Shown here: in pieces, positions 1 to 45,690 of the stretch | Layout of the letters: every line of letters begins with the position of its first letter | Position numbering within the stretch: the first letter of the stretch is position 1 | Assembly (NCBI GenBank): GCA_003971905.1 | Contig: RSEE01000168.1 | Span: forward strand, 1-64,000 | From: Moniliella sp. 'wahieum' | Taxonomy: Eukaryota | Reading direction: 5' to 3' | Length of the DNA: 64,000 nt | The notes under the pieces: model-generated | What the model was told of the DNA's origin: nothing | The model's database searches: none | What the model saw: the letters and a program-made list of their open reading frames with translations, nothing else | Translations under genes and position numbers: made by a program

Positions 1-2219
1 TAAAACGCAAGTGGAAACACTTGCAAATAGTAACGATCGAGCTGGGTGGTCCCTGTCTTGTGTCCTTTCCAAATATGATTGAAGAAAGAAATCAAGGAGC
101 AGTCTCCCATATGCGACCGCCACTAACAGACCACGAATTATAGGCCTTGCGCGTACGATCTTAGAGGTCTTGCCTTAATCCGATGACATCGAGTGAGTAG
201 TGGGCCTTATTAATGATCGATCTTTTCTTTCATTCATACGGTGTAACCCATAATCAAAAAGCTGAAGAACTACCGAAACCGGAACCTGGTGCAAGCGACC
301 CCCTGACCCCGCAGTCGCGACTGAGGCCTGAGGTTCAGAGAACCCGATATAACGTCATGCATTCTTGCCGATTACATATATATCGAGTATCGGGTTTCGT
401 TTGCTCATTCGCCAGAAAAGTGCCACTCGTAATCAATAAGATGGCTAACTGTGTTATATCGAGAGACTACGGTGGGGAGTTTGGAGAGCACGGCTGATGC
501 CCACACCCTACTTTTCTACCAACAAGGCGCAGCCAACTCCATGTATACGGCGTGCAAAATCGCAAGATATAGCCTTTCGTTGGCAAGAGCACAGTGACTA
601 TAGTATGGTATGACAAGTGACTTAGTGAGGCCTGAGACCCATGAGGCCGCCTGGCCTGATTTTGGTGGATACGCCAAAAGTGGGAGTGAGGGGTTGCTGT
701 TGAGCGTGTGGTGATATATGATAGAGATTGCGCATTGGCAGCATTTGGCTACTGAGTCTCAATGGAAATGGTTCCTCGCTTGATGTCAACCACGTTCATC
801 CGTGTCCACACGCGCTACCTAGGGTACGGGACCGCAGATGGTGACCACCACAGAGGGTCCTGATATCTTAGCGATCCCCCTGGTTCCTTACTAACCTTGG
901 TGGCCTTCCAAGTAACCCCCGCAAGATGAACGGTTCGGTTTAGACGCAGCGTTTCCTTAAACCGTACCGTTTCTCCTGTCCCAGCCTTACAAGCCAATGA
1001 TATGGATGCAGTATAGAGTGTGTCCTGGGAGGATATAACGCACAGATGTAGGGGTGGCCAGTGGAAAGAATGATTCTGACAGGTCATGGATACGTGCTCT
1101 GTGACATACGATAGGTGTTCTGCATACCATATGCCCAGCAAGTGGGCCACGCGGGCGTCGGTCGCGTTGCTAGTATAGTCGCTCTCGGTTCAAATTTATG
1201 GTACTGAGAGTACTGAGTGCCGGGTATACTCTGATCCGTGGTTCTACTGGGTCCTACTGGTCGAGATGATCGGATGATCCCTCAGCGTCTACTAAGTACT
1301 AATGCCTGTCTTATAGAGCAGGATAATGATTCTCGATTAACAATGCCAATTATCTATTGGTGACTGTAGCGATATCGAGTCGCTTTAGTCACAAAGGTCA
1401 CTATTGGTCACACGTCAACGCGTCAGCTATGGGAGGATGTGGGTACGACGAGTGCATTGCGACCATATCAAACTGTACGGAGAAGTTAAAAAAAAGAAAA
1501 AAACGAGAGCGCTGGGGTGTTGTAAATGGCCGAAGGGGCGTAACGCGTAACGTTACGAGAAGGGTGTGGGGAGGAGGACTCCCATGGATATCGAAAAGGC
1601 ATAATGTGTGTGACTGAGAGCCACGCTCTCACTTGCGAGTTTTAAGACGCTCGGAGGCTCGCCTGCCTCGCCAGTGACTAGTGACTTCTTCCACTCAAAC
1701 TGAACACATGTATGTGGGCCTCAGGCCTCACATGTCACGCCAGCACACAGAGATCCGGCAATTCTCCAGATGGATCGATACCTTTTGCTAGCTACATGTG
1801 TAGATCGGGTGGGTTGCCACCCTGAAAGACTGTCAGATTACATGTTACACCATTCAATATTCATCCCCAGCTGGAACTTCACCGGTTCCCGGCTTCCCGT
1901 CGGCAACCGATAGTATTGTGACTCTTTTTATCGCACCACGCCGACCCGAACGACTCAGGGAATATGCTCTACCAGTATGCAGTATGCCACTTACGACCAG
2001 AAGCTATTAGTCACCTCTAATCATTTAATCTTCATGGATTTTGGCACATGCGCACATTACCATGTCACAGGTAAGATAGGACCCGGCCAGTGTTGGAGTG
2101 TGGTGGCATGTGACATGTGACACCACTTGATGTGATGGGTTTTGATAGATCGGCCATGTCGCTGGCAACCAGAACTGGCTATAGAGTTATCCGCGTCTCG
2201 CGCGCTCCAGATTGGTTAC

Positions 2220-2299
2220 CGTCGCGCCTCGTTCCCCTCTCCTTCTTCTTCTCCGTCTGGAGCGTCGCGCCTCGTTCCCCTCTTCTCTTCTTCTCCGTT
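2220..2299. repeat. Imperfect direct repeat, 2 x ~37 bp
   Basis: CGTCGCGCCTCGTTCCCCTCT..CTTCTTCTCCGT occurs at ~2220 and ~2263. Confidence 0.8.
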
Positions 2300-3570
2300 T
2301 GCATTCAAAGTTGGACTAGCGTCAGGCCCAGGAGCTTACAAGAAGCTATCTCTGACTGTTTCCGCCCTGCACAGTGCAATCGCCCGTATAGTTTTTGGTA
2401 GCGTAGCTACTTCTCACTGTTAAACGTTGCTATAACGACGGACAACCGCGGTTCTCGGCTCTCTCATCGTGCTCATCATTGATCGCCCGTGTTGTAGTGC
2501 TTCGCTCTGGCCCTCATTCTTTCAGCCAGGGACCTAGTATCCGCTATCCGGTAGCATACAACACGTTCTACACGAAGAACAAACATGTAGCCCGTTTTCT
2601 ATATTGGCTCTCTCTGAGCGCGGAGATGAAGAAGGCCACGTCACGCGTCAGGTGCCACGGGTGACATGTGACATGGCAGTAACACACTCGCCTGTGGCCC
2701 GGGCCCGAGGCCTGAGGCCTGATCACGCGATCACGCGTCACTTGTTTCTAACCCTCCGACGTGCTCGTGTGCCTGATTGTTCCTAAAGGTGTCAGGCTGT
2801 GACATGTGAGATCTGAGATCGGAGTCTACTGTATTTCTCCCATTTGCGCGGCTCTGTCTGCAACCCTCCCCCGTCTATGGCCACGTTATATGTGAAACAG
2901 CATGATGTTGATACGTTGATAACGGTCATCGATCATCGATCATCGATAACGTCAAAAACGTGGTAGTTGCGTATACAAAGTGTCTGTCAGATGTGCTGGA
3001 GCCGTTCAAAACGTTCGGTCCGCGGCGCCAGTTTGCATCTCCACAGCCTGTCTCCTTGCCATGCAGGCCTCACGCGCCACGAGAGGCGTGGTCCAACACA
3101 TGCACCATCGATCATTAATCACTAATCATTGCGACATCTTCCTTCCCCTTTAGTCGTGTGGCCAACCTCTGACAACGGGGTATGCCCTGGCATGCCGGGC
3201 ATGGTAGGCACAGAGACAAACTGGAAAACAAACTGGAGCGCAGCTCGGCGAGCGCATCGTCATGAAGTTTAGTTGGTTGATTGGGAGTCTGGGCCCATAT
3301 CGGGCAGTGTGCTCTGTGTCCAGAAGCCGTCGGACTATGGACGACCCACAGGTGAAGAGCCAGTCAGAAAGCTAGATAGGCTTGATTGATTGATTGATTG
3401 ATTGCTTGTATACCAACGGATTAACAGTGGATGCGCGTGGGGTCCCTTTTGCAAAGCAGCAATTGACGACATGCCGGAGTAGCGCATCGTTATATAACTT
3501 CAACCGTGCCTCCCCTGGCACGGAGTTGCCCAACAACAACCGCCTCTTCCCTCTACTCACGCCCTTCATC

Positions 3571-6254
3571 ATGGCCTCGCCCTATGAGAAGGACGATGCT
3601 AAGGACGTCATTGACGGCCCCCGGTGCCTGCCCTCGGCTCGCAACAGCCTCAATACGTACTTGACCATGAGGCTGCTTTCGGTAACATTGAGGACGCCAT
3701 TCGCCAAGAGATTACCGACCATCGGATTAATGACCCCAACCTCGACCCACGCTCTTGCGCGAGGCGGACCAGGCTTTGTCCAAGGGCGATCAAAAGGCCG
3801 AGCTTCGCCTGGAGGATGTGATTGAGGACGACTCGATTTATCCTGAGGTCCGTGCCGCCGTTAGTAATCTCGACGACCCCACCATGAGGGCCAACACTTT
3901 CCGCGCGTGGTTCATGGGCATGATTGCCTGTACCGTTCTCAGTGGTATCAACATGTACTTCGCCCCCCAGGTATGTCCTTTTTCGCCTAACGATGACAAA
4001 CGGTAATTAACCTCCGTTGTAATGGTCAGTGGCCCACAGTTACCTTCCCTTCAATTGCCGTCCAGCTTTTCGCATACCCGATTGGTGTCGCTATGTCTAA
4101 GATCCCTTACCCTCGAAACTGGCCCCTTGCCGACTGGATGAACCCGGGGCCGTTCAATATCAAGGAGCATTCGATGATCTCCATCATGTCCACTGTCGGT
4201 GTCGGGTCTGCCTACTCGACGGACATTTTATCACGCAGCACGCGTACTATCGCCAGCATCTTACGCAGGCTACATGATCCTCCTCACGCTTTCGACTCAG
4301 CTGATTGGTTCTCTTTTGCCGGTTTCTGTCGCCAGATTCTGGTCTGGCCCGCCTCAATGATCTGGCCTAGTAACCTGACCCAGACCGCTTTTTGTTTTCC
4401 ATGCACGATGGCAAGAGCCAGGCCCGGTGTTTCCGTGGCTGGTCGCGTTTCAAGATGTTCTCGGTGGTGGGATGCATCGTATTGTGTGGGAAGTTATCCC
4501 CAACTACCTCTTCACTGGCTTGGCTACCTTCTCTTGGCCAGCATGGTGTGCACCCAAGAACAAGGGTGTCAACCTCATGTTTGGCGGCACTGGCGGCATT
4601 GGCTTCAACTTCATTTCATTGGATTGGCTCACCATCACCTCCGGGTTGGGCTCGCCCATTTACCAACCTTGGTTCGCCATTGTCAACACTTTCACTGGCT
4701 ACCTGATCATCATTTGTGTAGCTCCAATCATGTGGGCCACCAACACCAAGTACACGGGCTACTTCACCTTCAGCAGCTCTGCCTTGTACGACCGCTTTGG
4801 CCAGTCCTACCAGGTCGGCTACGTGGTCAATGATCGTTTTGAGTTGGACAAGGACAAGTACGACTCTTACTCGAAAGAGTATCTGTCGGCAACCTTTATC
4901 ATCAGCTACTGTGTTGGTTTCGGAGCCATCACCAGGTACGTGCTGTTCTCTCTCGGTGAGGTGCTCGGAAAATGTATCACTAACCCCTTCCTTCTTCATG
5001 TGGCTCACATCAGCACACTTGCACACTGCGCTTTGTACTACTCGAAGGACATCATCCGGCAAGTCAAGCGTTCGCTCAATGAGGAACCCGACATTCATGC
5101 CCGTCTCATGTCGCGCTACCCTGAGGTTCCACACTACTGGTATGGCCTCACTTTCCTCCTCTCGTTGCCTTAGCTGTTCCTTCGGTTTACGTGTATCACA
5201 CCGACCTCCCCATCTGGCTACTGATCGTTGCCATCTTGATGAGTGCCGTCTACACCATCCCCATTGGAATCATTACTGCTGTGACGTCCAACGAAGTGGG
5301 TCTCAACGTGATCGCCGAAATGATTGTGGGTTATGCTTTGCCAGGCAAACCCGTGGCCATGATGATCTTCAAGACCTTTGGGTACATCTCCATGTCCCAG
5401 GCTGTCTCGTTTGTCAGTGATCTCAAGTTGGGTCATTACATATGAAAGTGCCTCCCCGTGACATGTTCTGGGCTCAGATGGTGTCCACCTTCTGGGCATG
5501 TTTTGTGCAAGTCGCCGTCACTGCCTTCCTCTTTGGCTCGACCCACAACCTGTGCGGATCAACCCCCACGAGAAAGTCAGTCCTGCGCACTTTACCTGCG
5601 CTTCTCAGCACACGTTCTACTCTGGTACGTTTCTCTCCTTTCCAACTGGCAACAATGAAAGTATGTCCACTGACCCTGACAAATCGTTCTTGTTCACAGC
5701 GAGTATCATTTGGGGTCTCATTGGCCCGGCCCGCACGTTCGCAGTGGGTCAGACGTACGGTGCGTTGAACATCATGTTCTTGATTGGTGCTCTATCCCAA
5801 TCCCGACGTGGCTGCTGGCTAAGAAGTACCCCAAATCGTGGGTGCGCTTGATCAATTGGCCCGTCTTCTTCTCCGCGACGGGTATGATGCCGCCCGCGTC
5901 GGGGATCAACTTCACGTCGTGGTTTGTTGTCGGCTGGTTCTTCCAGTACTACCTCCGTCGTCACTATTTGAATTCTGGTCGGACTACAACTACATTATCT
6001 CTTCCGGTCTCGATGCCGGCAGCGCCATCATCTCCTTCCTCATCTCGCTCTGCCTCGAGGTGCCCAACACTAAAAAGCTTACCGTGGACAATGTGTTCAA
6101 CGGGACACTTGTGGTGGGGTAATAAAGTTGAGGCCAATAACTGCAGGGCTCGCTTTCCTTGACCATGAAGGAGGTTCCTGCCAAGGGCTTTGCACCCGCG
6201 CCTAACGGCCAGTGGCTGCCCAACCCCTTCGCGGCATCCTCTTCCTCGAGCTGA
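3571..6254 (+). CDS. OPT-family oligopeptide transporter (introns, several frameshifts)
   Basis: OPT signatures across ORF fragments: DSIYPEVRAAV, TFRAWFMG, NPGPFNIKEH, LYDRFGQSY, DIHARLMSRYPEVP, SDLKLGHY(M)KVPPR, NYIISSGLDAG. ATG at 3571 follows TATATAA at ~3491; GTATGT/GTACGT introns at ~3971, ~4936 and ~5625. Confidence 0.93.
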
Positions 6255-7747: not shown

Positions 7748-8580
7748 CCTCGGCTTTGTTGCCACGCAGGGAAGGCGAAGCACCAGTAGACAGGTGGGGT
7801 GCGGTGGATGGGCACAGGGAAGAGGGGGACGGCTACGAGGCGAGAGTGGTGGTGGTGGGGAGAGAAGTGACTCTGATCATTCAGCTCTTGGGGGTGGAGC
7901 CAACAGCCAGTATCTAGCTTGAGCCACCAGGGCCCAGTTCCGCCCGCGGCGCCGTCTTGCGAGGGGAGGCGCGATGTGATATCGCATGTCACATGTCACG
8001 TGGCCCAGGCTGGGGAGCAGTTGACGTCACATGGATGCTGAAGACGAAATACGGAGCGTAATATGTAATGGATTGAGCCATCTGCATCACGGCCTTCTCG
8101 GAGGCTACCAGGAGCAGACCAGCTGGCAGCCCTCCATCGTGCATCGACCATACATGAGGAAAATCAACAACGCGATGGGCATCAATCTCGTTGATCATCA
8201 CATTTTGGATCGTGTGAGGGACGTTGTGCGTGTGCTTGCATACTTTTGAGGACAGTTATAATATGCACAAAAGAGAGGGAAGAGAGATGTTCCCGCGACA
8301 CGCTCATGCACAGATGAGAGGAGGCACCTCACAGGGTATGATTGTGGCGAGAAACAAAACGAATTGTTTCGAAGAAGAGAGACAGAAACGGTGAAGAATG
8401 GACGAGGGATGGGGGTGAAAGGATGGGAAGAAGAAAGGCGAAGAAGGAGAGAAAGGGACATTCCAAAATATACAGAGATCGAGGAAGGGGCACACACATG
8501 TAAATAGGAGGGAATGTTGTTCTTCTCTCATCCCACATTCGTCATATCCACAAAATATGAGCAGCCACAAATGACCCATT

Positions 8581-11146
8581 TCAAGCCTTTTCGTCTTGCT
8601 CTTGGGCGGTGCCCGGGCCGGGGTGACGGGTGGTGAGCGAGTCGCCTAGGGTGAGCAGCGGGGCGAGCTTGGCAGAACGATTAAAGCAAATGTAACGCTT
8701 GAACCAGTAGGGCAAGGTCTGGGTCAACTGATACTTGATGTATACCTTTTGTGGCACGGCAAACACTTGATCAATTTCTTCTAGCGTGAGTTGCTTGGTC
8801 TCCCGTACAAAGAGGAAGATGAAGATGAGAGAGAGCACGTTGGTGCCGGCGAAAAAACCAAAGCACCTGTTGGTGTGAATACGGCCAACTGCGCTGGGAA
8901 GCAGATGGACAGCACCGCCGAAAGACCGAAGCAAACCGCGACTGACCATGCCATGCCCATCGAGCGCTGGGCCAGAGGAAAGACCTCAGCAGAATAAGTA
9001 AAGGGCACCGGTCCTTCGCCGGGCGAATAGGCACAAGTAAAGAGGTAAATGAACAGCGCAATGAACCCAATGCGGACGTGCTTGTTGGATTCCGTGTCGG
9101 GGATCAAGAAGCAGAGACCGGCCGCCAAAAGGAAGAGGCCCATAAAGGGGAACGTCCACAACAGCAACGGCCGCCGTCCAAACCGATCAATCGTCCAGAT
9201 AGCCGGGAAGCAAAAGACAAAGTTCAAAGCACCAAAGCCGATGGAAGCATTGAGAGCGGTATCGACACTGCCAGTGGCCTGTTGGAAAACCTGAGGGTCA
9301 AAGGCGAAAAAAAAAAAAAAAAAAAACATATCATGTCAGTTCCATACCAACAAGCATGGTCTTCCCACTGCATGCGCCTTGCACCGCACCCCATCCTGGG
9401 CTGCCGAAGCAAATCCCGACTGGTGTGCACACCACAGGACCAGCAATGAGAAGGAGGCCTAGTTTAGAAAAGAACGAACCGTGCTCGAGTAAAAAGCAAT
9501 GATGTTAATCCCACACGCTTGTTGTGCTGCCATCACAACGCTAGAGAAGAAGAGAAAGTCAGCACCACAATGGCCCATAAAAAGATAATGGGGAGGCAGA
9601 ATGATGAAACATGTTGGGTAGAGAAGCATATACACACCTAGCCGCCACCGTTGCGCGCCGAACTCGAGGAATGGTGAACAGTTGCGTGAACTTCTGGAAG
9701 GCAGTTACTCCCTTGTTCATCTTTTTCTCTTCTTCGAGAAGAATGTGAATGTAGTACAAGTCTCGCGCAGCCTGGAGTCGATGCTTCCGTAGTCTCAGCA
9801 AGCTCTTAAACGCTTCTTCGTACCGACCCTTTCCGATGAGCCAACGTGCGCTCCGGGCAGTAAAAGACAAGAAGCGTCAATGGGACAGCAGGGATAAAGG
9901 CAGAACCAAGCTGCAAGCGCCAAGCCATGTCCTTCCCAGTGTTTTTGACAATCACGTTGGCCACAGTTCCAATCTGGATACCAAAGAAGGTGAGCATATG
10001 TCATCGTGCCCCTGCTCTCCCGTCCTTTTTGACGAGACTCATTCCACAGTCCTTCTTGAGGCATTGGGTCGAATGCCCAGAAGTATGTGCATAGCCCGAT
10101 TAACTGGTGTGAAGAACCAGAGGATGAGAGGGGAGACGTACGAAGATACCAAATGCGGTTAGAAGTTGCCAGTTGAGCACCAGTGCGCCTCGGATTGCAG
10201 CTGGTACCTGTTCAGCGGCAAATACCGGGGTAGTTGAGCCCTTGATGCCCATGCCAACTCCCAGGAGAAGGCGGACAATGAGCAGCTCCACCACTTTTGG
10301 GTCAGGCCAGAGCAGATGGGGGGTAATGATGAGAATGAGCCCACAGAGAAAGATTGCACCACGCCGACCCCACATGCCATTGATCCAATCGGTAATCCAA
10401 CATCCGATCAGTGCCGAACCGAGGTACGGCCCAGAGTTGACGATGCCCAAAAGCCAAGTGTTTCGGTACCAGTGTGGCGAGTACCCTGGTTTGGTCGGAT
10501 CCGACTCGTTGGGAATTCCAATAATGGAGGTCATGGTCGTGTTGGCAGCGTTGGAACCTAACATGATCAAAAGAAAGGATGAAAAACAAAGAGGATGAGC
10601 AAGTGCACAGATACATAACAAAATCCAACACGAGATCCTCAGAAAGAGAAGGGGAGGAAGTCATCACGTACCTGTCTGATCCCAACCCTGTGTCGCGGCA
10701 CCAAGAGAACAGACCAAGATGGTAATGTAAAGCGTCCACGTCTGGGACCATTGGTGGGCCTGCTCGTATTCGAGCGCGTCACGCTCATCGGGCAAAAGTT
10801 CGGGGATGTTGCTCCAGGCATGGGGAGACTGGGCCACTAAGGCGCCCCGTTGAAAAAGCTCTGTATGCTGCGCCAAGCCTTTGCTCTGGGCAAAGTTGGT
10901 TACGTCCGCAAGTAGCTTTGTGCGTGGCACCCCCTCGAGCGGGTTACTGATCTTGCCAGACAAGTTGCGACTGAGATCGAGCGAGGGGATGGCAACGTCG
11001 CTGCCAGCGCCATGCACTTTCTCCTCATCCACGCCGCGTTCATGGGAGGGAAATGCGTCGAGGGTGTCGAGCACGAGCGGGCCAGCAGGCCCCTCCTCGT
11101 TAGCAAGTGCCTTCTTCTCCTTGCTCCAATCGTCGACGTTGGCCAT
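8581..11146 (-). CDS. MFS sugar-porter family transporter (myo-inositol/polyol type), multi-intron
   Basis: [89 protein letters not shown]. Confidence 0.92.
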
Positions 11147-14100
11147 ATGTGCAGGGGGTGATGGAGGGGGGGGGTGAAAGGGGTTGGCTGGGATATGGAA
11201 CCACGTCACCGTCTGCCGCCTCTTTTATTTGTACTTGTGAAGCCGCAGCGTTGGGGCGGAGTAACTAGGAACTCGTAACCATCAGTAAGGCTAAGGACGA
11301 GCGTGCGTGTGGTGCAGCAGGCACCAAAGCACAGAGAGATGGATCGTGCTTGTGATCGGCGGGCTATACCGTGACGGATATCGGATCGCCCGTTTCGAGG
11401 GGATTGTTATAGCCAAGTGTAGCCATCGGGGCGCGGCGGGCAGGGGGGCAGTGTTGGTGGGTGTGCGGGGGGCGTGCGGTGTGGTGCTGGGCGTGGCTGG
11501 CGTTCCTCGCAGGGGTAAAACATCCGACTGCCGAAAGCCCCGGGCCGCAGCGGCGGCGATTGGCGATTTGCGGCGGCACAGGACGGCACAGGGCGGCACA
11601 TCGGCGGCACCCAGCGCCCGGTGCGGGGCCAGCCAGATGTGCCCCGGGCCAGCTCAGATCTCAGAGTGCTCAGGTGCCGAGGCGATCCGGCCTCAGGCGC
11701 CCGGGCCAGCTCGCGCCGCCACTCAATGCGGGGCCCCAATCGAAGGACCTGTCTCACCTGCACCCCGCACCACAGCACTTTCGCCACGCAGGGTTCTGGC
11801 CCCCGCCACCGCCATTCCGCAACCACGGGCGTCCCCAGCCGCCCCAGGCTATCCCGTGGCGCCATGTCCCCGATTACCCGGCCATTGTACTTGATCGCTA
11901 CAGTGACTAGCCTCTCCCCCTGGTCTCTCCAGGTTTCTCCGGTTAATCCTTCCTACTACATGATATACGAGGCTTATTCGCGAGCTTCAAGTGGCTTCAC
12001 GCTTCAAGGACCACAGCCAACGAAAGCACTTGGACAGTAATCGCCAATCACTAGCACTAGTCAAGCTAGTCGCCCTAAAAAAGTCACGATAGCAACTATA
12101 GTCAAGTATTCACTGGCCATACGGCAGAACCCCATGCAATACGCGCAGCCGCGGTGCAAAGCGGGCGACAAAAGTGCTGCTGAGATGCGTGCCTGTGTGC
12201 CTCATAAGGCCCCTGTGAGACTCGACAGGACCCGACCCTCGAAACAATGTGAGAGACCGGCTCTGGCTCAGAGGGAAGAAGCCGCAGGGCACGAGATGAG
12301 TTAGGCCGAAAATGCCGTATCGTGTGAGCGTCTGTGCGAACCCACTGCTGCAGCCTCTCTGAGTTTCTCTTTGCCACTTATATGCATCCCCATGCTCTAC
12401 ATACATGCCCCACACACTTTCGCATCATGCCATCACGGCGATAGTTGAGAGACAATGCCCCCCCCCTTTTCCGTCCGTGGGGCGTGCGGGGGTGCCACGA
12501 TGCCAACAATTAAAGTTGGGGAACTCGATGAAGAACAATTTGGTCAATTATTTTAAAACTGACCCCAGAACCCTCACAGGCCTGAGCCTCAGGTCCCTGC
12601 TTGATCACTTAATCCTGATACTGTGGGGTATAGGAACACATTTTTAGGTACCAAAGAGGAGATACTTTCGCAGCAGAGAGAAGCATTTCTCCTCCCAACG
12701 TACTGTGTTTGCGAAGAGGGTCCAACGTGTTCGGCGTTGAACGTTGACCGGTTGACCGTTGCACGTTTTTTAAAGCTTGAAGCTTGAAGGGGGCTTTTGT
12801 CGTCTCTCAAGTGTCGGGTGCCTCTCAAATGCTGTGTCATCGATCATCGATCTACGGCATATATCCAGACTAAGATCTAAAAAGGGGGCAACCCCGGAGC
12901 ACTATGGATCGATCAAAGGTGTGGCACTAGTGTGTGCCGCAGAACAGGGCACTCCGACGAGCAAAGTCTACGGGAAGAGAGGTGGCCATCAGTCGATCGG
13001 TCACAAAGAGCGGGAACGAGGTTACCGGTTATGAGTGAAGCTTGAAGAGAGCAGAGCAGAGGTGTGGTGTGGAGAGACAGGAGACTCACTACAGAGATGG
13101 AGGACATGCAAGGCGGGCGGGCGCGCAGCGCGAGCAGTATGGCATGAACTGGCGTTGTGCACCAGAGCCATGGTACCAGCTTACTAGGCAGCCGCTATCC
13201 CCCCGCATCACAACGTTAGCATCATCAGAAACGTTTTCTGTGGATATGTTGATACCACCACAGAGTATATTTAAGTCACTACAGCAAGCACCGATCATCA
13301 TGATGCGGCTCAACTGGGCTGGCGGACGAACCCTTGGGGCATAAAGAAATCGGGGAGAAGTCATTGTCGGAGCTGCTCTGGTGATAGAATATCCATGGAG
13401 AGAGTCTCGCGCTTTCTTTTCTGTGGGTACGCAAATCATGGTGTTGGCTTTGGATCTCAGGAGTGCATTTATCTTTCTCATAGATTCATCTCGGCATCTC
13501 ATCTGCTGTATAAAGTGTGTCGGTCATGTAACGTAATTGAGCAAGTGCCTGAAAGGATGAGAGCACAAGCTCACAGACCGAATGTATGCTCTGTACTATT
13601 TCGCCAGTTTCTCTATATGTTAACATCCCGCCATTCTTTTCTTCGTCCTCTGCCATCGCAACAGCTAACATTAAACTGGGATGTCGCCTTAGCTCAAGGC
13701 CAAATACATCAGTCGTTGCCGTCGGGCGCATAGACGACATCCTTGATGATACAGCACGAAAAGCAGACGATGCCCCCCAATATGCTGGACCTCACCCTAA
13801 CTCCGTTCAGATGTATTACCAAAGGTATTTACCCTCTCTATAAAACCTTGAGTACTAGTAGACTCTCCTCCATAAGATTGCGGTGTGTCAATCGCGCTTC
13901 GACGTTTCCGAATTATCCGCGCAAAGTACAGACCATGATGAAGTCACCAGCTCTGCTCCCACGTCCTCAGCCGCGTGCATGGAATGTGGTGGACGACCCC
14001 CCAATGACTACCGGTTACCGCGGTTATCGAGGCTATCAGTCATAATACCCATCTCGTTACCCGCCTGACCGGCCTGTTGGCCGTCGGTGACCGGCGTGAC

Positions 14101-15123
14101 AGAAGCTGGGACGTAGCAGGCCGCAGCTCCGATCCTGGTAAGCTACTAGCAGTGAGAGTAGGAATGAATACTAGGTTCAGAGATCTGATTATAGCCCTTA
14201 GCTCTGTATGGCTTGTTTCCCCGTCAGCTCACCGGACTCACCAGAACATCACATGCCCACGCTGAGAGTAACCCCTACCGTCACACCCAGCAGCGCAGCA
14301 CGCGCAGTACTCTCGTTGGCCCCATTCTCTGGCACACGATAGGATCGATGAGATATCTTCGCGAGTGCACGGATTACACTGATAGTTATACGTGGGAGCA
14401 CCGTGATCAGGTGAGCACAACTCCCCATGGAAAGAATGAGCCTATTGAATTGATGAGATGCCATGGTGGACTGCGGTCGAAGGGATATACCAACGTTCAA
14501 CCCGAGTTCGGGGGTGGACAGAGGATTCAAGTGGCAGCAGTGCAGGCCGACATGGAATGAACACACGAAGGGAGAAACGAGCACAACACGCAAGCGCAGG
14601 GGCAAGGTCCAAGGGTTAACTCATACAGTCCTCAATCCTTTTGAGATTCGGGTTACGATTAGTCGATCATCCGATCAGGCGCACTGGACCTCCTTGATCT
14701 CATTTGCTGAGCATACGAGCACTCAGCCTCAGCGCACTGCTCACTGACCCTCGGTACTCAGGGTACTCAAGCTGAGTATGAGCAGCTCTCTCGTCGGCCT
14801 GACCACAGCCGAAACCGAGCCGGGGTCACCCATGGAGTCATCGGCCGGTGCCATTTCCTGTCAAAGAAAGCGGAACGTGGCAGTCACGTGGCGGTGCTCA
14901 GCGATGGATGGTGGGTGATCGCCTGGAGTCTCAATGTATGCGCGAGGCGGCGGGTGGCCGCCGAGACACTGGCGCTGTGCCGGGCGGGGTGGGGTGTGAG
15001 ACAGCCGGGCGGCCACGTGCATAACCTCAGACGAACTTCCCCACCGCCGTCGTCCCACCCCCACCACCTCCTCCGCCCCGCCGCCCGCCGCCCGCCGCCC
15101 GCCCCTCGCCCCTCGCCCTCCCG

Positions 15124-18100
15124 ATGCCCGCGGGCACTGGCGAGCACCAGCCGCGCCGGCAGACGGCCAAGGCGGGACTGGCGCGCACTGCCAAGTACAT
15201 TTTCCATCCCGCCGCCGCCGCCCGCGCGAGCCTCCGACCCCACCTCGACGCCCCACCGCGGCGGCCTCCCCCGCCCACGCCACTCCTTCCCCCCCACCCG
15301 GCCCGGGCTGCAGCGCGCCCTGACCGCACCCTCCCTTGCGCAGCAACACCTTCCGCCCGTCTCCATTTCGGCGGATGTGGCTGACCCGTTGGACACCGCA
15401 ATGGTCGCGATGCCCACCCCACCCATGTCCGAGTCGGACGAAGACGCCGACTCGGACGCAGAGGGTGAATCGAGCGAAGCGGGGTACACAGCAAGGAGTG
15501 CAACCGAAGTTGGGAAACGTGCACGTACCCGCTTGGTTTCGCTTCAGGCAGCGCCAGCCTCGCGCTTGGGTGCCCCCTCGTCCGAACCCGAGGATACGGC
15601 GTGGACATCGGACGACATGGAATGCGATAGCGCTGACGCGGGAGACGAAGGTGTGCTCTCTGAATCGGATGCGGCAGAGCTTCCGTACCATTTGCTCGCA
15701 CGACCCATGATGCCCTCTCATTCGGTCCGGTCAGCTGCTGGAGCGTGGGCAGACTGGATTGTCGAGGAGCAGGCCGCTGCCAGCCGCTCGGATTCTCCTC
15801 GTCGGTCCGAGGCGTGCGCAACTTGACCCTCACCTGGAATGACATCCTCTCTCTCGCAGAGGCCTGCCCGTACCTCGCAATCCTCCCTGGCCCACCCTGT
15901 ACTGGATTACGTTTCGGGCGACGCTACAGATGCCCTGACAGACGTGGAATCTGACTCGGACCAGGAACCCGACGAGTACCGGACGACTGAAGACCTAATG
16001 ACCCCCAGGGGAAGGCAACCGCTCCGTCCGTTGCCCTCTTTACCGCCGTCGGGGAATTGCGGCCTCCCCTTCCCGGCATGGCCATTCCCACTCCTCAAGT
16101 CAAGGGAAAGATGCATCCTCTTCACCCACACGTCTCCGAGGGGTAGGAACAGGCATGCGCACTCTGGGTAGAGAAGTTGGCACGTTTCCGCTCAAGATGG
16201 GTCGAGGGATCACAAAGTGGTCCACTCGTTCCTCGAGAGGTCTTTCCGGCTCATTGATGCCCACGGATGCGCTGACGACCGAGTCGGAGCCCGAGCGTGC
16301 CACCCAACCCCCCAGACGGCGCCACAAGAACCCTGCCCACCTGTTCCGGCGCACGGACGACATGCCGCTCGAAGCCAGCCGGACCACCAAGATTGGCAAG
16401 GTGGCACGGTACGCTGTTCCCGCCGTGCCTCGCATGCGGATGCGACGTCCTCCCGAAGGAGGGGTGCCAATGCGGCACTCGCTCTCGGTGCGTTCGGTGC
16501 ATTCGGTTCACACGCTGCGCTCCCACCCCCGTCGGGCATCCCAGTCGACGTCCACGTTGATTGGCGGTCCCTCGCAGCGCAAACGTTTGTCGATGCAAAA
16601 GCGGCGGAGCAGACACGCCGCCGCCCGGAGGGTCTTGGCGACTGGCACTGCTATGAGCAAAGGAACGACTCGTACCGTGCATGCGGCCGCGTCGGCTACC
16701 AGTACCGCTGCCCTCGCTGCTTCTGCCCCCCTGGGTCGGCGACGAACGCGTAAAGACCACCCCACCGGCGGCGCAGGCGACGGGATCGCCAGTTCGCCTT
16801 CCAACAGGACCTGGGCAAGACGGTGGTGGGCGTGGTGATGCTCGAGGTGGTGGGGGCAAGTGATCTACCCAAGTACCGCAACAGTATGTCCTTTCCTTTT
16901 CATCTTTGATATCTTTGCCTTGCTGACTTGGGACTGCTAGTGGCGCGTACCGGCTGGGACATGGACCCGTTTGCGATCATCTCGTTCGGACGCAAAGTAT
17001 TCCGGACGAGGGTGGTGCGACACTCGTTGAATCCGGTGTGGAACGAGAAGATCCTGTTCCAAGTACGGAGATACGAAACGGCGTTCCGTACCACGGTGGC
17101 TGTGTATGACTGGGACCGACTGTCAACACATGACTTTGTGGGCCAAACGTATGTTCCTGTAATGCAACTGATCGATGCGGCCCCAAGCCCGGACCTGATG
17201 GACTAACGCGCATGTGGTCGGAGAGGGCAAGGAGCCAGCAGAGAACGATGTGACGCACGTATCAGATTGGACCTCGTTCGAGCTTCCGCTACTCCCTCGC
17301 ACCGACAAGTCGACGCACAGTGCCCCAGTAACCGATGCTACCGTACCACTGAGTATGACACCCGTCGCCTCCCCATCGCCTCCTCCCGTGGTCCATGACA
17401 GGGGGGGCAAGCGAAGGTCCAAACTGCTTCACGTCAATCGCAGTCTCCCGCCGTCCGCCCCGTCCACACTGGCAGCTACGCCCAATAAAGGCCTGTCTTC
17501 CCCCCAAGGGACGCCGCCTGCCTTCACCCCGCCCACACGGCCGGGCTGGGCGAAACGCCGGAGGGGTCCCGGGACAAAACGCCCATCCTCCGGCTCCGAG
17601 CCAAGTTTACCCCGTATGCGCTGCTGCGGCAAACGTTCTGGATGCACGTGTTGCAGCAGTACGATCCGCAGCACCGTGGTGGGGTGATGCTAGAGGACAT
17701 GTGTGCGCTCTTATCAAGTCTGGGCTCGACACTGTCTCCCCACACTGTGCAAGGTTGGTTTGATGAGTACAGTCCTGCCGCTCCCGTGGAGATCCTCCCA
17801 TACGGCGCAGCGATCCTTGCGCTGGAGCGAGAGATTCAGCGGCCCTGGACGCAAAAGCGGCCGGTACATGAGTGGTTGTGGACCACCTCGGTGTGGAGCC
17901 AGAGGAGGTGGAGGAAGTTGATCTGGAGATTGAAACTGGATTGGAAGGTTTCTCCAGCACAGCCAGTGCCGACGACCCCTTGGCTCCTCCTCGTGAGCAC
18001 GGCCACGCGCATCCTATCGCCCGACCCACTCCATTGCACCCACGGTCATGGCAGAATCCGGAGACTCAGGGTTCAATTTCCCCTTCTCCCTCTCCGCCAC

Positions 18101-19529
18101 CGCCGAACCCCAGTTCACGGGAGAACAGTGTACCCTCCCCTCTGCCCACTGAGTCAAACATAACACCCGCATCGAATCACCTTTTTGCCCATCCGTCTGC
18201 TTCGCTACCCAGCCGGACCATCTCGCCCCTTGCCGAGGAGCCGATGCGGCGGAGCAGGTGGTGGTCAAGGAACAAGTCATTCGTCTTTCGCGCTGCCCAC
18301 TCTGTGGTCGTGCCAGGCTGGCCCGCAAAGGCGAAGTGGACATTGTTACTCACTTGGCCGTCTGCGCGTCGCGCGATTGGGCCGCGCTCGATAAGATGGT
18401 GACCAAGGAGTTTGTTACGGCCCATCAAGCTCAGCGCAAGTGGTACTTTAAGATGGTGCGCAAGTTGGGCCAAGGATCCTATGCCCTTGGCGCCAACTCG
18501 GCCAACATTATTGTTCAGGATCGAGCGACGGGAGAGATGCAAGAAGAGGCTGCCAAGGCCTATGTCTTTATCGGCATCCGTGCCCTTTATAAGGGCGCGA
18601 GACTACACGTCGAGGGAGCACGAGTAAGAAAGATGCTGCGCAACATGACACTCAAACAGGGTGCCAAGTTTGATGATCCCGCCTCTGTACGGGAGATTGC
18701 TCCGTTTGTCGCGTTCCACAAGTTAAATCTCGAGGAGATCTTGCTCCCGTTGGATCAATACAAAACGTTCAATGAGTTCTTTTACCGCAAACTTAAGCCC
18801 GATGCCCGCCCCATCGAGGAACCCAACAACGAGTGGCGCCTCGTCTCGGCCGCCGACTGCCGCCTGACCGTCTTTGCCTCGGTCCAAGAGGCGACACGGG
18901 TCTGGATTAAAGGTCAAGGGTTCAACCTCCGCAATCTCTTGCGTGGTGCCCCCGGGGCGAGCGCAGTCGAACGCTTCGAGGGCGGACCGATGTGCATCTT
19001 CCGTCTGGCACCGCAAGATTACCATCGCTTCCATCTCCCTGTTTCAGGCCGTGTGGTGTGCATCACCCACACCCCCGGCGAGTACTTTACCGTCAATCCC
19101 CAAGCGGTTCGATCCAAGCTTGATATCTTTGGCTTGAACCGTCGCGCTGTCGTGGAGCTCGACACGCCCGCATTTGGAAAAGTTTTCCTTGTAGCTATTG
19201 GTGCGACGATGGTGGGATCCATCCTGTTTACCTGCGTTGAGGGGCAGATGGTCGAGCGAGGAGACGAGCTGGGCTACTTTGCCTTTGGCGGTAGCACGCT
19301 CGTCTGTCTCTTTGAGCCGGGACGGTGTGTGTTTGATGAAGACTTGCTCACCAACTCGCGCGCAGCCATCGAGACGCTCGTCAAGGTGGGTAATGGCATT
19401 GGCCGCGGTACCCCGGAACACCGCACGCCTACGCCGCTCTCTACCAATCCCTCCCGTGGCCCGAGCAGGGTGGCCACCCCGAATCCGCATCCGCCCGCAC
19501 ACGCCCAACCGGCTGGAACCCCTTTCTAG
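15124..19529 (+). CDS. PSD2: Phosphatidylserine decarboxylase 2 (C2 domain, EF-hand-like region, PSD domain)
   Basis: C2 segment DMDPFAIISFGRKVFRTRVVRHSLNPVWNE; TFNEFFYRKLKP, SAADCR, FRLAPQDYHRFH and the GGST autocleavage motif at 19287-19298. Start uncertain (15124, 15401 or 15425); the N-terminal low-complexity region is frameshifted. Confidence 0.92.
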
Positions 19530-19781
19530 CCAAGTTTCTCACCCGCGCGACTCACGAAGCCTGTCCCCCTCCCCCCCCGGCCCCAACGCTGGCCAACGCC
19601 CTCCCGTCACCTTCCGTACACGGACCTAGTTCAACCTGCCCAACTTCCAAGGACTGCTCTCTCTCTTTTGCATTTTTTCACACTCCCCGTCCCCGCATGC
19701 TCACTGGGCTGCTCTAATTCAACTTCATCCTTTATCGCAGATCGCAGACAAGATAGCCATAGATGCAGAGAAACAAATTCC

Positions 19782-19989
19782 TTAGTCGACCTCATTGACC
19801 TTAGCCGCAGCGGGCGTCTCCTCGGCGGGCGCCTCCTTGGCAGGCTCCTCGGCAGGCTCCTCGGCGTCCGAGTCTTCGGCGTCGCCGCCGAGGTCGGGCA
19901 TGCCCTCGGCCCCACCCATGTTCTTGAGAAGCTCTTGGATGTCCATCCCACCCAGACCTTGGTCGCCGCCGCCCATGCCGCCCAAGCCA

Positions 19990-20024
<35 letters not shown>

Positions 20025-20552
20025 ACCCATCATAGAGGCCATGTCCACTATCAAGTTGAGTCAGCACAATCATCTTCGCCCGAAAGGAACAGGGGGAGGG
20101 GGATAATGAGGGCAACGTACTGCCAGGGGGCATGCCCGCCGTCGGGTCTTCCTGCTCCTCGTCTTGCTCATCCTCGTCCACCCACTTGTCAAAGTCGGTC
20201 TTAACGTTGTGGAGGCGAACCTTGTCCTTGGTCAGACGGGGCCAGAACTCTTCTTGGCCTCCTTCTTGCGGAGCACAGCAAACAAGCTCTTGGCACTGAG
20301 GTGCACCTTGCTAGCCTCCACATCGATAGGCGCAAAGAAGGCAAGAGAAAATGCATAGTGCTTCTCATCCACACCTTGTGCCGCCGGCACGTCCGCCTTG
20401 AACTCGAAACCCTCCGGGGTGAGGGTGAAGCTGGTGCCGGCCTGCAGCGGCGGCAGGTTGGGAGCGTTGATCGTGAGGTACACCACGTTCTTCTCCGCCT
20501 CGTCGGCCGAGGAGCGCTGGGCCCAAAGAATCTCCGGAGCGACAGTAGACAT
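19782..20552 (-). CDS. SBA1: Hsp90 co-chaperone p23 (Sba1/Wos2)
   Basis: PEILWAQRS..KNVVYLTI CS domain, WPRLTKDKVR..VKTDFDKWVDEDEQ, one intron (~20060-20120), GGM-repeat acidic tail. Confidence 0.92.
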
Positions 20553-20722
20553 GGCAGCGAGTGGTGGTGGTGGTGGTGGCTAGAAACGGAACCCTGGGGT
20601 TGGTGGGGAAGAAGGCAGCAAGAGGCCTAGAAGAACACATTGGCCCAAGCGAGGCCTCGCAACCCCAACACTGCCCTAGTGCGGAAGGAAGCGCCTAGAA
20701 CGCGCTTGTTTTGAAACGAACA

Positions 20723-21136
20723 GATCAGTCTGTGGCACGGCGGGCCTGTAGGGTTGGGTGCGGCGAGTATATTCTAGCGGGTCCTATCGTCGTATCGGCT
20801 GCGCCAGAGATGAGCTCGTCCTGCGTCCTCGGTATCAGGGTTGGAGGCGACCAGCTAGCTGCTCGTGGATCTGTTTCTGCAGCTCAGCGATAGTGTCAGC
20901 CTCCTTTTCCAGCTCAGTGTCACCAGAAGACTGGGTGGGAACACTCCCCTACCCCAGGGCTCTGGCGGCGCCGACGAGTGCAGCCGCCAGTCGAGCTTTA
21001 ACTCCACCAGGCCGCACAGGAAGGCAGTGCTGAGAGGCGCCTCCCCGATGTTCTTGAGCGACAGGGGGAAGTTGGCTGATGTATTGACGCAGCCGCGCGC
21101 GTGGCGCCAACAGGTTGTGTGTGAGGAGTCGCACAT
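20723..21136 (-). pseudogene. TRM112: Trm112-like methyltransferase activator gene, degenerate or error-ridden
   Basis: Reading across indels gives M(V)RLLTHNLLA(C)HARGCVNTSANFPLSLKN...LKLDW(A)ALVGAARALG, which resembles Trm112. The C-terminal half is poorly recognisable and the 3' end is uncertain. Confidence 0.6.
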
Positions 21137-22210
21137 TGCTCCCCGCTAAGGTGTGTGGTCCTTCATATTGAGCACAGCAAGCGGAATGCAGTTTTGCGGG
21201 GCCGGGGCTGGGCTCCCGCGGTGACGCACGTGATGCTGCCCAAGCCTGAGGCTCAGGGGTCAGCCTGACCATCCATCCATTCCGCACGTTGGCTTGCGAC
21301 AGATTTGCTCCCCTATGGCCACCAACCGCAGACGCGCGGAAAAGAGAGTCAATTGAGTCGGCCTCCGCGTTTTGAGGGGGTTGGCCCCAGGTGTCAGTAT
21401 GACACGAAGCGCAGGCCCAGTTCTGAGGAAGGCGCGAGAGGGAAAGTCATGTTAGTCATGCCTCTTCAGTGCAGCAAGCGTTTACCAAGAAAGATGCCAA
21501 AGCTGCGCTGATCGATGCGACATGAGCATTTGTTGAACGTCACCGAAAACTTGATGAATTCGGTGAATACGAGGCGCATAAGGACGATGCCAACTTGGGT
21601 GGAACTCAGAGACTCTCACTTGATGACAGTTGTCCATACACAGTACTGATCAGACCAGCCAGCCTTCGAGCTTAATCGCTGGATCGGTGCGCATTGGCCA
21701 GGTGGCGATCCAATTGTGTTTGCATAGCCAAACTGTGTATATTAGTACTTTGTGGCATAGACATGGTGCCTAAATTCATGAATTTTCCTCGTTCTTTCTT
21801 TCTTTGCCGCGCATTCCCGGCCTTCCTGCTTGCCTAGCTGCCTGCTTTCTCCCTTCATGTGGGCCCCCAACCTGGATTGATCGATCACCGACACAAGCGA
21901 AAGGGCACCGGCGTCGCGGCCGTCGGGTTCGTCTGTGAGTATGTTGGCGGGGCCACCGTTGAAACAAAAACAGCCGGTGGTGGTTGGATGGAAAATGGTG
22001 GAGACGCATGTTAGGGTTTCTGCACAGCGCCTGTCTCGGGTGGCTTAGGCATGGCGCCTGTGTAGCTAATTTCCCGGCGCCGGCGGTGACGCGGTGACGA
22101 GACCCGGCCGATCCGGCTCGGTGGTTACGGAGGTCTTGCCAGCACTACCTCCACCACCACCACCACCACTACCCCTCTTCGCCACCACTACTGCTCTTCT
22201 CCCCTGCACG

Positions 22211-25200
22211 ATGGACACGCTCCTCGACTTTAGTCGGGAGCTCGACGTTGGCGCCCTCGACCAGGTCGCTGCGCTCATGTACACGGGCACGGGTGCCGAC
22301 AGAAGCAAGCGCAGGACTTGCTACGCCAGTTTCAGGACCACCCCGACGCCTGGCAACGCGTGCCCACCATCATCACCGCCAGCTCTCGGAACGAAAGCAA
22401 GTACAATCGCCCTCCGATCCTCGACAAACTGATCAGTACCCGCTGGAAGACCATCCCGCCCGAGCAGCAACAGGCATTCGCAACTTTGTCGTCCAGACCA
22501 CAATTGAGCAGTCGTCGGACGAAGTCAACCTCCGTCGCGAACGCGTCTACATCAACAAGCTCAACACCACCCTTGTCGAGGTACGTTGTACCCCGTGTGC
22601 CCTCTTCTCGCGCGCTCACTGACCTTCCCCCGCCCCTTCCCTCAGATCCTCAAGCAGGAGTGGCCCCAGGGCTGGCCCAACTTCATCCCGGAAATTGTTG
22701 CTTCGAGCAAGACGTCGTTGCCGATCTGCGAAAACAACATGCACATCCTCCGTCTTCTGTCTGAGGAGATCTTTGACTTTAGCGCCGGGCGATGACCTCG
22801 GTCAAGGCCCAAGCTCTGAAGGAGCAGATGGTGTCGGAATTCTCTGAGGTCTTCCGTCTCTGCTCAGAGGTCCTGGAGAAGCACAGAAGCCCTCTCTGAT
22901 CAAGGCTCGCTCGACACCACCCCTGCGCTTCATTACCTGGGTCCCGCTTGGTTTCATCTTTGAAACGACGTTCATGGACACCTTCTGAGCCGCGTACGTT
23001 TGATTCCTTGTGACGCGTGCGTATCGTATTAACCTGTCTGCAGTTCCTTGAGCACCCCCTACCGCAACGTGACACTCAAGTGTCTGTCGGAGATTACGCT
23101 GGTCAGTCTGCCGGATTATGACCATCTGTTGATTCTCTTCCAACTGTCCATGTCTGCCATCAACCGGATGCTTCCTCCGTCTGTGGATATTGCCAAGGGC
23201 TACGAGGATGGTTCGGACGAGGACCAAGCTGATTAACAACCTTGCCATTTCATCTCGACTTTCCTTACCCCCATCTCAAGCTTATCGAGACGGACGATCA
23301 CCGCGCTCTGCTCCAGAATGCGCATATGTACCTCATCAAGATCGCGATGGTGCCCGAGAGGAAATCTTCAAGATCTGTCTCGAATCTTTAGCAAGTTGAC
23401 CCAAGAATTTTACGAGGAGATGCAAAAGATGCCCGTGTCCAACCCAATCTTGGGTCTCAACTTGGGGGGTGCCTTTGGCGGAACCAGTCCGAAGCGGCGG
23501 CACTGGTGGCGATGCGCAAGACGATGTATGCCGACATTCTGTCCAATCTGCGGATGTGATGATTGAGCGCATGGTGAAGCCGGAGGAGGTGCTGATTGTA
23601 GAGAATGACGAGGGGAGATTGTGCGCGAAGTGTTGAAAGAGTCGGATGCGATGGTTATGTACAGAGCATGCGCAGTGTGCTTGTCTACCTCACCCACCTC
23701 GACCCGTCGACACGGAAAACCATGACCGACAAGCTGACACGCCAGGTGGATGGATCCGAGTGGGGATGGAACCCGCTCAATACACTTTGTTGGGCGATCG
23801 GATCGATTTCGGGGGCCATGTCGGAAGACTCGGAACGCCGGTTCCTCGTGACGGTGATCCGGGACTTGCTGACGCTGTGCGAGGCAAAGAAGGGCAAGGA
23901 CAACAAGGCGGTCGTCGCGTCCAACATCATGTACATTGTTGGGCAGTATCCCCGTTTCTTGCGGGCGCATTGGAAGTTCCTCAAGACAGTGGTCAACAAG
24001 AACTTTGAGTTTATGCACGAAACTCACGAGGGCGTGCAAGATATGGCGTGTGACACGTTCCTCAAGATTGCACAAAAGTGCCGGAGACACTTTATCATCC
24101 AACAGGCCGGCGAGGCCGAGCCGTTTGTCGATGAGATCCTTCGTTCGCTCCACTTTACCACCAACGACCTGAGCCCGTCCCAGGTGCACACGTTCTACGA
24201 GGCGGTCGGGTTCATGATTTCGGCCCAGACGGATCAAGACCAGCAGGAGCGGCTGATTGCCAAACTGATGGAGTTGCCCAATTCGGCGTGGAGCAATGTA
24301 CTGGAACAAGCACGAGCCAACGTTGATGTCTTTAGCTCCCCGGAGAACATTAAAGTTCTGGCCAATGTGCTCAAAACCAACGTGGCCGCCTGCACTTCCA
24401 TTGGAGCTGCTTTCCTCCCGCAGCTGGGCAAGATCTACCTCGACATGCTCGAGCTGTACAAGAGCGTCAGCACCATTATCTCCGCCAAGGTTGAGGCCGA
24501 AGGTTTGATTGCGACCAAGACGCCCATGGTGCGTGGTTTGCGGACGATCAAGAAGGAGATCTTGCGGCTGGTCGAGACGTATGTGGCGCGAGCGACCGAC
24601 TTGGAGTATATATCGAGCTCGATGATCCCTACGCTACTCGAGGCAGTCCTGGGCGACTATGCCAACAATGTACCGGACGCGCGGGATGCCGAGGTGCTCA
24701 ACGTGATGGCGGCCATCACCAACAAATTGGGTGCGCTACTCTTGCCCCAGATCCAACCGACGATCGACGCCGTGTTTGAACCTACGCTAGCGATGATCTC
24801 GCTGGATTTCAGTGAGTTCCCCGAGCACCGTGTTGGTTTCTTCCGCTTGCTGCGGGCCATCACAGAGAACTGCTTTGAGGCGCTGCTCACTCTGCCGCCC
24901 GAGAAGTTCCGGCTTACGATGGACAGCATCATCTGGGCCATCAAGCACACGATGCGCGACATTGCCGACCAAGGCTTGTTCATCATGTTGGAGCTGCTGG
25001 ACAAGATCCGGTTGGCGGACGCGTCGGTGGCCCAAGCGTTTTACCAGACCTACCTCCTGGCCGTCTTGCGCGACGTGTTTGCCGTCCTGACCGACTCGGA
25101 CCACAAGTCGGGCTTTGGTGGACAATCGATGTTGCTGGCCAAGCTGTTTGAGCTGGTGGGTACAGGTGCTGTGCTTGCGCCGCTGGGACCCGAGGTCGAG

Positions 25201-25521
25201 GCAGGACAGGCGGACAACAAGCTGTATGTGCAACAGTATACGGCCACCATGCTGCACAATGCGTTCCCCAACATGGACCCGGCCTATGTGGAACAATTTG
25301 TGGTGGAGCTCTTCCTGCGCGCGGGTCAGGTGGCCGCGTACAAGCAAGTCCTGCGTGACTTCCTTATTCTCTCGCGCGAACAGAGCGGGGTGCGGTCGGA
25401 CAATGCGGACCTGTATGTGGACGACAAGGAGGCCCAGGTGGCTGCCGAGATGGCCAAGGCGGGCGAGGTGCCGGGGATGCTCAAGCCGTCCCAGATGAAG
25501 GACGAGGACGAGGAGCTTTGA
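22211..25521 (+). CDS. CRM1: Exportin-1
   Basis: [80 protein letters not shown]-terminal [17 protein letters not shown]; introns at ~22581 and ~22994. Confidence 0.98.
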
Positions 25522-25585
25522 GTGCGCGCTCACTGTGAGCTGTGATCTATGAGCGCTGAGCCTGTCTAGGTTTGGCTTACTGCAT

Positions 25586-32573: not shown

Positions 32574-32579
32574 TATAAG
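32574..32579 (+). promoter_or_regulatory. TATA box of the metallothionein gene
   Basis: TATAAG in GC-rich context, 100 nt upstream of the ATG and followed by a pyrimidine-rich leader. Confidence 0.55.
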
Positions 32580-32673
32580 CAAGGGCCTTGGCCCTCCGCA
32601 CGTTCTGCCCTCCCCCCATCTCCATCCCATCCCCATCCCCCCCACCCCTCACCTAACCTTCCACGCCTTGATC

Positions 32674-45656: not shown

Positions 45657-45690
45657 CCTAGTCCCTTGTCTGGCTCCCTCTGATTCATCT

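Follow-up and report, generated by a model that had tools for sequence, protein, structure and literature searches.

In the basidiomycete Moniliella sp. 'wahieum' (genome assembly of 69.5 Mb in 223 contigs), the first 64,000 nt of contig C168 (C168:1-64000, hereafter the window) carry many short units in which two TNA triplets enclose a self-complementary 4-bp core. This TNA-palindrome-TNA pattern is real, non-coding and genome-wide. The units are very probably hairpin-type excision footprints of an EnSpm-like transposon lineage which targets TNA and duplicates 7 bp. An earlier note, made from the letters of the window, had proposed either a protein-binding element or the footprint of a hairpin or template-switch process; the flank rule, the haplotype indels and the junctions described below favor flank hairpins of an excised transposon, but not a replication template switch. 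No function is indicated for the units.

The pattern was noticed in region 1-3500 of the window, the spacer upstream of an OPT transporter gene starting at ~3570. As far as tested, this region is gene-free as the note had claimed, the only frame being a stop-to-stop frame of 124 AA over a long terminal repeat (LTR) remnant at 728-1018. All 11 quoted examples are present, but two begin one base earlier (322 and 626), and at 3112 the core of TCA-TTAA-TCA is palindromic while the second core given there, CTAA, is not. Units are dense at 323-3128 as stated, but the pattern is not limited to this extent, since 39 units against 5.3 expected were counted in 6200-64000. Expectations for region 1-3500 were obtained from 300 dinucleotide shuffles. 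TNA-N4-TNA occurs 38 times (13.1 ± 3.7 in the shuffles), the form with palindromic core 22 times (0.86 ± 0.96, shuffle maximum 6) and the form with palindromic core and identical N on both sides (same-N) 20 times (0.23), which is the enrichment over a composition-matched background that had been asked for. Hexamer palindromes of the form A....T are flanked by T-N and N-A in 22/42 cases (2.6 expected), those starting with C, G or T in 1/14, 0/13 and 3/14 cases. Other gaps and palindrome lengths are close to expectation, except for the 4-bp, gap-0 class, which is nested in the same units.

Genome-wide, TNAAGCTTNA gives 9,876 matches versus 204 for the reversed control, and the non-palindromic TNAAGTCTNA gives 247/281 matches. 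The repeats of Ustilago maydis, to which the units had been compared, have non-palindromic cores. Same-N unit density ranges from 0.1 to 2.8 per kb in eight stretches on seven contigs. Units and junctions were further analyzed in a non-redundant sample of 342,460 bp, in which AGCT cores make up 60 of 411 same-N units; together with the 9,876 matches of TNAAGCTTNA, this gives a rough extrapolation of ~60-70 thousand units in the genome. Each of the 16 possible palindromic cores is represented, and 82% of units have G or C as N. Coding and non-coding DNA differ: outside long open reading frames (ORFs; 174,696 bp) 456 cores are palindromic and 503 are not, whereas inside long ORFs (167,764 bp) the numbers are 42 and 159. 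In Pfam-supported genes (12,165 bp) 0/4 cores are palindromic. The scarcity in genes follows from the unit itself, because +7 insertions are frameshifts with in-frame stops.

The core of a unit is predicted by its surroundings. At a site ab-TNA-cd, the core is either cd d'c' (right mirror) or b'a' ab (left mirror), i.e., it is built from a flank dinucleotide and its reverse complement. At least one flank is mirrored in 178 of 211 isolated units (chance ~12%), namely the left only in 67, the right only in 63 and both in 48; in region 1-3500, 17/22 units mirror a flank. In the sample, the strict pattern is 38-fold enriched with TNA, whereas ANT, GNC and CNG reach 0.5-0.7-fold. The units of the window are the following, with the sister haplotype (contig C125) given where informative:

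322..331, unit TGA-GGCC-TGA; the core mirrors the right flank GG
626..635, unit TGA-GGCC-TGA; in C125 a degenerate GGCC array of greater length is found here
712..721, unit TGA-TATA-TGA; the right flank TA is mirrored
1293..1302, unit TAA-GTAC-TAA; the left flank AC is mirrored
1541..1550, unit TAA-CGCG-TAA; mirrors both flanks
1675..1684, unit TGA-CTAG-TGA; mirrors both flanks
1717..1737, mixed GGCC/CATG array, interpreted as a single TCA site that underwent left- and right-mirror events in succession; the outer right flank is CG in the window, CA in C125
1838..1863, units TTA-CATG-TTA (right mirror) and TCA-ATAT-TCA (left mirror)
2016..2022, empty site TC-TAA-TC; C125 has TC-TAA-GATC-TAA-TC (+7, non-tandem)
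2111..2120, unit TGA-CATG-TGA; mirrors both flanks
2641..2740, cluster of four units: CGCG 2641, CATG 2662, GGCC 2713, CGCG 2731
2800..2820, mixed array at site TG-TGA-GA; CATG mirrors the left TG, GATC the right GA; the sister haplotype has the CATG unit only
2926..2949, homogeneous array (TCA-TCGA)3; the first core mirrors the right flank TC; common to both haplotypes
3112..3121, unit TCA-TTAA-TCA; flanks vary between haplotypes
7989..62542, 39 more palindromic-core units, clustered in spacers (e.g., 12738-13045, 40154-40580, 50979-51121)

The gain of units was followed in the near-identical haplotype pairs C168/C125 and C9/C18, which differ at 3.0% of 248,489 aligned columns. A third homologous copy is found at ~80% identity, while in a comparison with C9 and C18 two of the three copies are ~93% alike, which suggests a triploid or hybrid genome. 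Clean haplotype indels of 5 to 9 bp number 21, 30, 48, 17 and 10, with the peak at 7 bp. Among the 48 of 7 bp, 13 fit the mirror rule exactly and are non-tandem, 15 fit the rule and are tandem and one is tandem only. With inserts swapped between sites, 33 of 9,397 fit the rule. The implied targets of the 13 rule-fitting, non-tandem indels are centered on TNA in 11 cases. The note's claim that slippage does not account for in-register core changes holds. A slippage-born microsatellite was rejected on the strength of the 13 rule-fitting, non-tandem gains; only one tandem gain lacks the rule fit. The direction of change could be read in a single case: one LTR copy has GA-TAA-GGCC-TAA-GG where the other aligned copies have GA-TAA-GG (10/10 and 9/9 in two comparisons). 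As the other copies are empty, this event was an insertion. The +7 mirror rule was also seen at CCA/TGG triplets, in haplotype indels at positions 42789 and 57901 of the window and at C9:913649; therefore, the TNA target is a preference and not absolute.

Arrays extend the same rule. The site at 2800 gained CATG from its left and GATC from its right flank, so that core switches in register arise because one site is hit from both sides. In 19 of 22 mixed arrays an outer core mirrors the outer flank. There are 334 single units, 42 double, 22 triple and 3 longer arrays; triple arrays look too many for independent hits, hence slippage or local re-targeting would contribute, and slippage probably does contribute to array growth.

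The junction spectrum fits opened hairpins. Among same-N TNA pairs at spacing 7, only the left flank is mirrored in 122, only the right in 108 and both in 124, and a further 29 are plain 7-bp duplications (1.7 expected). Hairpin joints also fit 61 cases at spacing 8 and 36 at spacing 9 (0-2 in shuffles), and at spacing 11 both overhangs are whole in 3 joints. A few long mirror runs comprise the whole 7-mer in inverted form, so that TCA becomes TGA. In an odd-palindrome model, an apex that is the complement was found in 15/66 (7-bp) and 6/28 (9-bp) cases and is rarer than an apex with the same base. Flank hairpins have been shown for hAT, Transib, RAG and MULE (PMC5499845). Both Pso2 and Artemis cut a hairpin 2 nt 3' of its apex (PMC3299998), to which the two added nucleotides found here correspond.

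The proposed mechanism starts with an element inserting at ab-TNA-cd and duplicating all seven bases, which is seen for the transposon family below. At excision, the transposase would close each flank, exactly where the element ends, into a fully paired hairpin in the manner of RAG. A host nuclease of the Pso2/Artemis type would then open the hairpins 2 nt 3' of the tip, leaving the 4-nt overhangs cd d'c' and b'a' ab. End joining would mostly retain one overhang and thus add 7 bp as TNA-[flank mirror]-TNA, the product present in the haplotype pairs. Repeated visits, plus slippage once a repeat exists, would build arrays, and one hit per side would place two different cores in register. The units themselves would be neutral remains that spacers tolerate and that coding DNA mostly lacks.

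From the scars, the agent is predicted to be an element with a 7-bp nn-TNA-nn duplication. A family of 4.85-4.97 kb bearing terminal inverted repeats (TIRs), with the termini CTCACTG...CAGTGAG, was found. Its copy on C11 has 4.85 kb, long TIRs and subterminal repeat arrays, and a DNA search with an end of this copy yielded at least 19 ends. A TNA at a distance of 2 nt from the element is seen at 18 of 19 ends; the two C11 ends had been chosen for adjacent TNA, and the unselected ends have TNA in 16/17 cases (background 4%). Five of six two-ended copies have an exact 7-bp nn-TNA-nn duplication:

C34, element copy, TSD (target-site duplication) GTTGATG
C35, element copy, TSD CATCAAC
C23, element copy, TSD GATCATG
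C29, element copy, TSD GTTGATG
C20:546811-547188, 378-bp miniature inverted-repeat transposable element (MITE) of the family, TSD GATGATG

The C11 copy, whose flanks are unequal, has a sister allele with 67 bp more, consistent with a deletion beside the element. In the sister allele of the C35 copy, CATCAAC stands once and the element is missing. Empty single-copy sites were seen at C46 and in four LTR copies: the MITE on C20 sits inside an LTR, and the four other copies of this LTR that were examined have the target site once. The sister allele of the C29 copy, on C53, reads GT-TGA-TGCA-TGA-TG. This is the scar that the mechanism predicts: an entire TSD is followed by two mirror bases and then by the second TSD, shortened by two bases, and nothing of the element is left. 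The five long copies have moved recently, as they are only 4-28 substitutions from the majority state. A profile (A1) of Tnp2-type relatives matches all five (E about 1e-12 and 3e-5), with the second D, C2C, H and E motifs in separate frames; the first D was found by eye in one copy only. The candidate agent is a putative EnSpm/CMCT-like lineage with an atypical 7-bp duplication, whose copies seen look non-autonomous and may move in trans.

Further searches concerned the source of transposase and other candidate elements. At C34:513262-516872 (minus strand) lies an EnSpm/CMCT-like transposase gene that is almost complete and has the motifs D, D, C2C, H and E. It is single copy, carries frame breaks, lies 8 kb from a copy of the TIR family and has scar-rich spacers; no TIR or TSD was detectable around it. 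This TIR-less gene is a candidate helper or a candidate domesticated gene. A second Tnp2-like gene is located at C17:556-559 kb, with an allele on C62; its first catalytic D was not seen in the C17 frame, and a search of the PDB with its protein gave no sequence match. Neither Tnp2-like gene has convincing TIRs or TSDs, and both were rejected as the agent. No copy of the TIR family was found in the 64-kb window, and TIR-plus-TSD scans of 646-779 kb of partly redundant sequence found no element with a 7-bp TSD. For a CACGGGCG-ended family, no TNA-preceded end pair was found by eye among the 86 matches listed. A 3.6-kb candidate at C18:533488-537067, with ~30-bp inverted ends starting (C/T)ACAG, was rejected as it is single-copy and has no matching TSD; it lies inside a 5-kb haplotype-specific region. 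The profile search with PF05699 (hAT) gave no matches, also none in any control genome, and the PF18759 search was blank and uninformative.

Several results weigh against excision footprints of this lineage. No flank is mirrored in 33 of the 211 isolated units, and 19 of the 48 clean 7-bp indels fit neither model exactly. The C53 scar is possibly an independent earlier hit, since 37 of 806 TGATG/CATCA sites (~4.6%) carry a unit, and a scar is seen in one of three interpretable sister alleles of full-length copies. Frame breaks, four internal scars and a Helitron piece are common to all five full-length copies, no intact autonomous copy was seen, and a Pfam search of the element ORFs gave no hit in 5/5; the shared frame breaks may be real decay or systematic errors alike. 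The extrapolated number of units stands against at least 19 element ends. The dinucleotides TG, AC and TC make up 19/24 of the family flanks versus 126/411 of the scar cores (hand count), while CATG, GGCC and CGCG, common in region 1-3500, are rare or absent among family flanks. Given these narrower flanks, either other or older families are needed or the surviving copies are a biased sample. Excisions in rice mostly left deletions or filler without a stereotyped scar (PMC4423477). We consider it an even call whether a few elements, hopping almost without multiplying and maybe helped in trans by a TIR-less transposase retained by the host, wrote the tens of thousands of scars. This fuller reading comprises an undescribed CMCT-related lineage, a 7-bp TNA target, perfect RAG-like flank hairpins and P-nucleotide scars in all three subgenomes.

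The very high ratio of scars to elements, and a scar spectrum wider than the flanks of the TIR family, would also be expected if an enzyme acting free of a transposon, e.g., a domesticated CMCT transposase such as that of C34:513-517 kb with its full set of motifs and no detectable TIR or TSD, cut TNA with a 7-nt stagger and made hairpins, the TIR family merely sharing the target. This is unlikely: before hairpins could form, a direct duplication would require gap filling, a step that comes naturally with insertion and later excision. Elements showing the predicted 7-bp TNA duplication do exist, and plain 7-bp duplications are in excess. Template switches are able to yield a direct plus an inverted copy. 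Units could arise if replication switched templates over short distances at quasi-palindromes and slippage came afterwards, and the 48 fully symmetric sites among isolated units and the 22 triple arrays, where slippage probably aids growth, agree with this. Template switching would predict variable lengths and no base preference, yet by far most mirrors measure 2 nt and TNA is strongly preferred; nor does it predict matching 7-bp element duplications. We give it little weight.

The strong non-coding bias is what a selected degenerate protein-binding element, such as a chromatin organizer, origin or insulator, would show, but frameshifts and in-frame stops of +7 gains explain gene avoidance. 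All 16 cores occur and are predicted by the flanks, and mismatch between haplotypes is 0.039 inside units and 0.039 in flanks, above the neutral half-rate of 0.020, so units are not less diverged than their flanks. In addition, the sister haplotype lacks 7 or 14 bases at 53 of 527 unit sightings. A binding element is thus even less credible than template switching, though some units may have been co-opted secondarily. Errors of assembly or base calling were considered since indel errors of 1-3 bp are frequent in this assembly, as seen in haplotype comparisons. Nevertheless, most units agree to the letter between haplotypes that were assembled separately (of 333 gap-free aligned sightings, 262 are intact); the units also avoid genes and match the TSDs of elements, which makes the probability of an artifact close to negligible.

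For excision footprints, the chemistry is known, the variant is new and the scale is unusual. What marks a flank-hairpin footprint was found: an even palindrome built from the flank at the edge of the duplication, and an element with matching TSD length and target. Transib duplicates 5 bp. MULE duplications have 8-10 bp (PMC5499845), unlike the 7-bp TNA-centered duplication here. With RAG coding joints, Transib and MULE, the scars share the flank-built even palindrome centered at the cut and occasional longer mirror runs (PMC5499845); unlike there, one +7 product dominates, scars are genome-wide and sites are re-hit into arrays. Excision of Muta1 in yeast is mostly precise (PMC5499845). The family resembles CACTA/EnSpm and CMCT in its TIRs with subterminal repeats, in CACTG at positions 3-7 of the terminus and in the Tnp2-type profile match of its transposase pieces, which apparently have D, C2C, H and E motifs in separate frames. 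CMCT elements are described with CA..TG ends in most members and TSDs of 2-5 bp (PMC12730594), and the fungal CNIRT6 and CNEST have a 3-bp TSD and the TSD TA, respectively (PMC12810828). In contrast, the termini here are CT...AG, of which the C53 scar keeps no CT/AG, and the TSD is 7 bp with a TNA consensus. The family thus works like CACTA/EnSpm but departs from it in two defining features, the termini and the TSD length.

In hAT elements (Ac/Ds), hairpin-derived palindromic insertions likewise occur at the empty donor site, but they are odd and centered on the complement of the element-adjacent base (PMC5873905), whereas the palindromes here are even without complement preference and the element protein resembles CMCT, not hAT. 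The fungal hAT7 shares the 7-bp TSD length (PMC12730594). PIF/Harbinger has a TAA/TTA target and a 3-bp TSD (PMC4423477 Table 1); like Tc1/mariner it leaves TNA or TA repeated around a few bases, but the filler there comes from constant element ends, while here 16 forms are copied from the flanks. In the literature searched, with most subscription papers and Repbase reports outside its scope, neither genome-wide TNA-palindrome-TNA scars nor a CMCT element with a 7-bp TSD was found.

Other features of the window were identified as follows:

3570..6200, plus strand, OPT oligopeptide transporter gene bordering region 1-3500; 0 units inside
728..1018, plus strand, multi-copy LTR-like remnant of a high-copy LTR family, overlapped by the 124-AA frame
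33467-33642 and 39533-39709, LTR remnants of the same high-copy family in mutually opposite orientation

The OPT gene is frameshifted in both haplotypes but not at the same positions, an indication of indel errors in the assembly. The LTR remnants at 728-1018 and 33467/39709 were rejected as the scar-making agent, being LTR debris. A multi-copy, non-autonomous Helitron-like element lies at 32037-32333, with a TC start, two GNA-loop hairpins and, in other copies, a CTAG end; the C125 allele is without it and has a TGA/CATG/TGCA scar array there instead. As a Helitron, this insertion was also rejected as the agent. At 21541-21687, ~145 bp present in the window are missing from C125, with short inverted CCGA/TCGG at the ends and no clear TSD. 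A 1.6-kb element on C40 has long inverted arms which correspond to an LTR end (TGTCAC...GTGACA) and 5-bp flanks that nearly match.

Excision footprints are normally seen singly in reporter assays, whereas here they are apparently a bulk component of the genome, with ~2 units per kb of non-coding DNA. The scars preserve a natural record of how targets are chosen, hairpins opened and ends joined. To our knowledge, EnSpm/CMCT-type cutting has not been shown biochemically for CACTA elements; if confirmed, the scars would provide sequence-level evidence on it and extend the TSD range of the clade to 7 bp. A transposon of low copy number would then be able to remodel regulatory DNA and give rise to tandem repeats, although repeat annotation hardly detects it. 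If the few mobile elements did write the scars, they would rank as a main source of indels in promoters and spacers, and heptamer repeats would be born without slippage. To look for such hidden activity, the 10-bp signature can be counted in other genomes, whichever they are.

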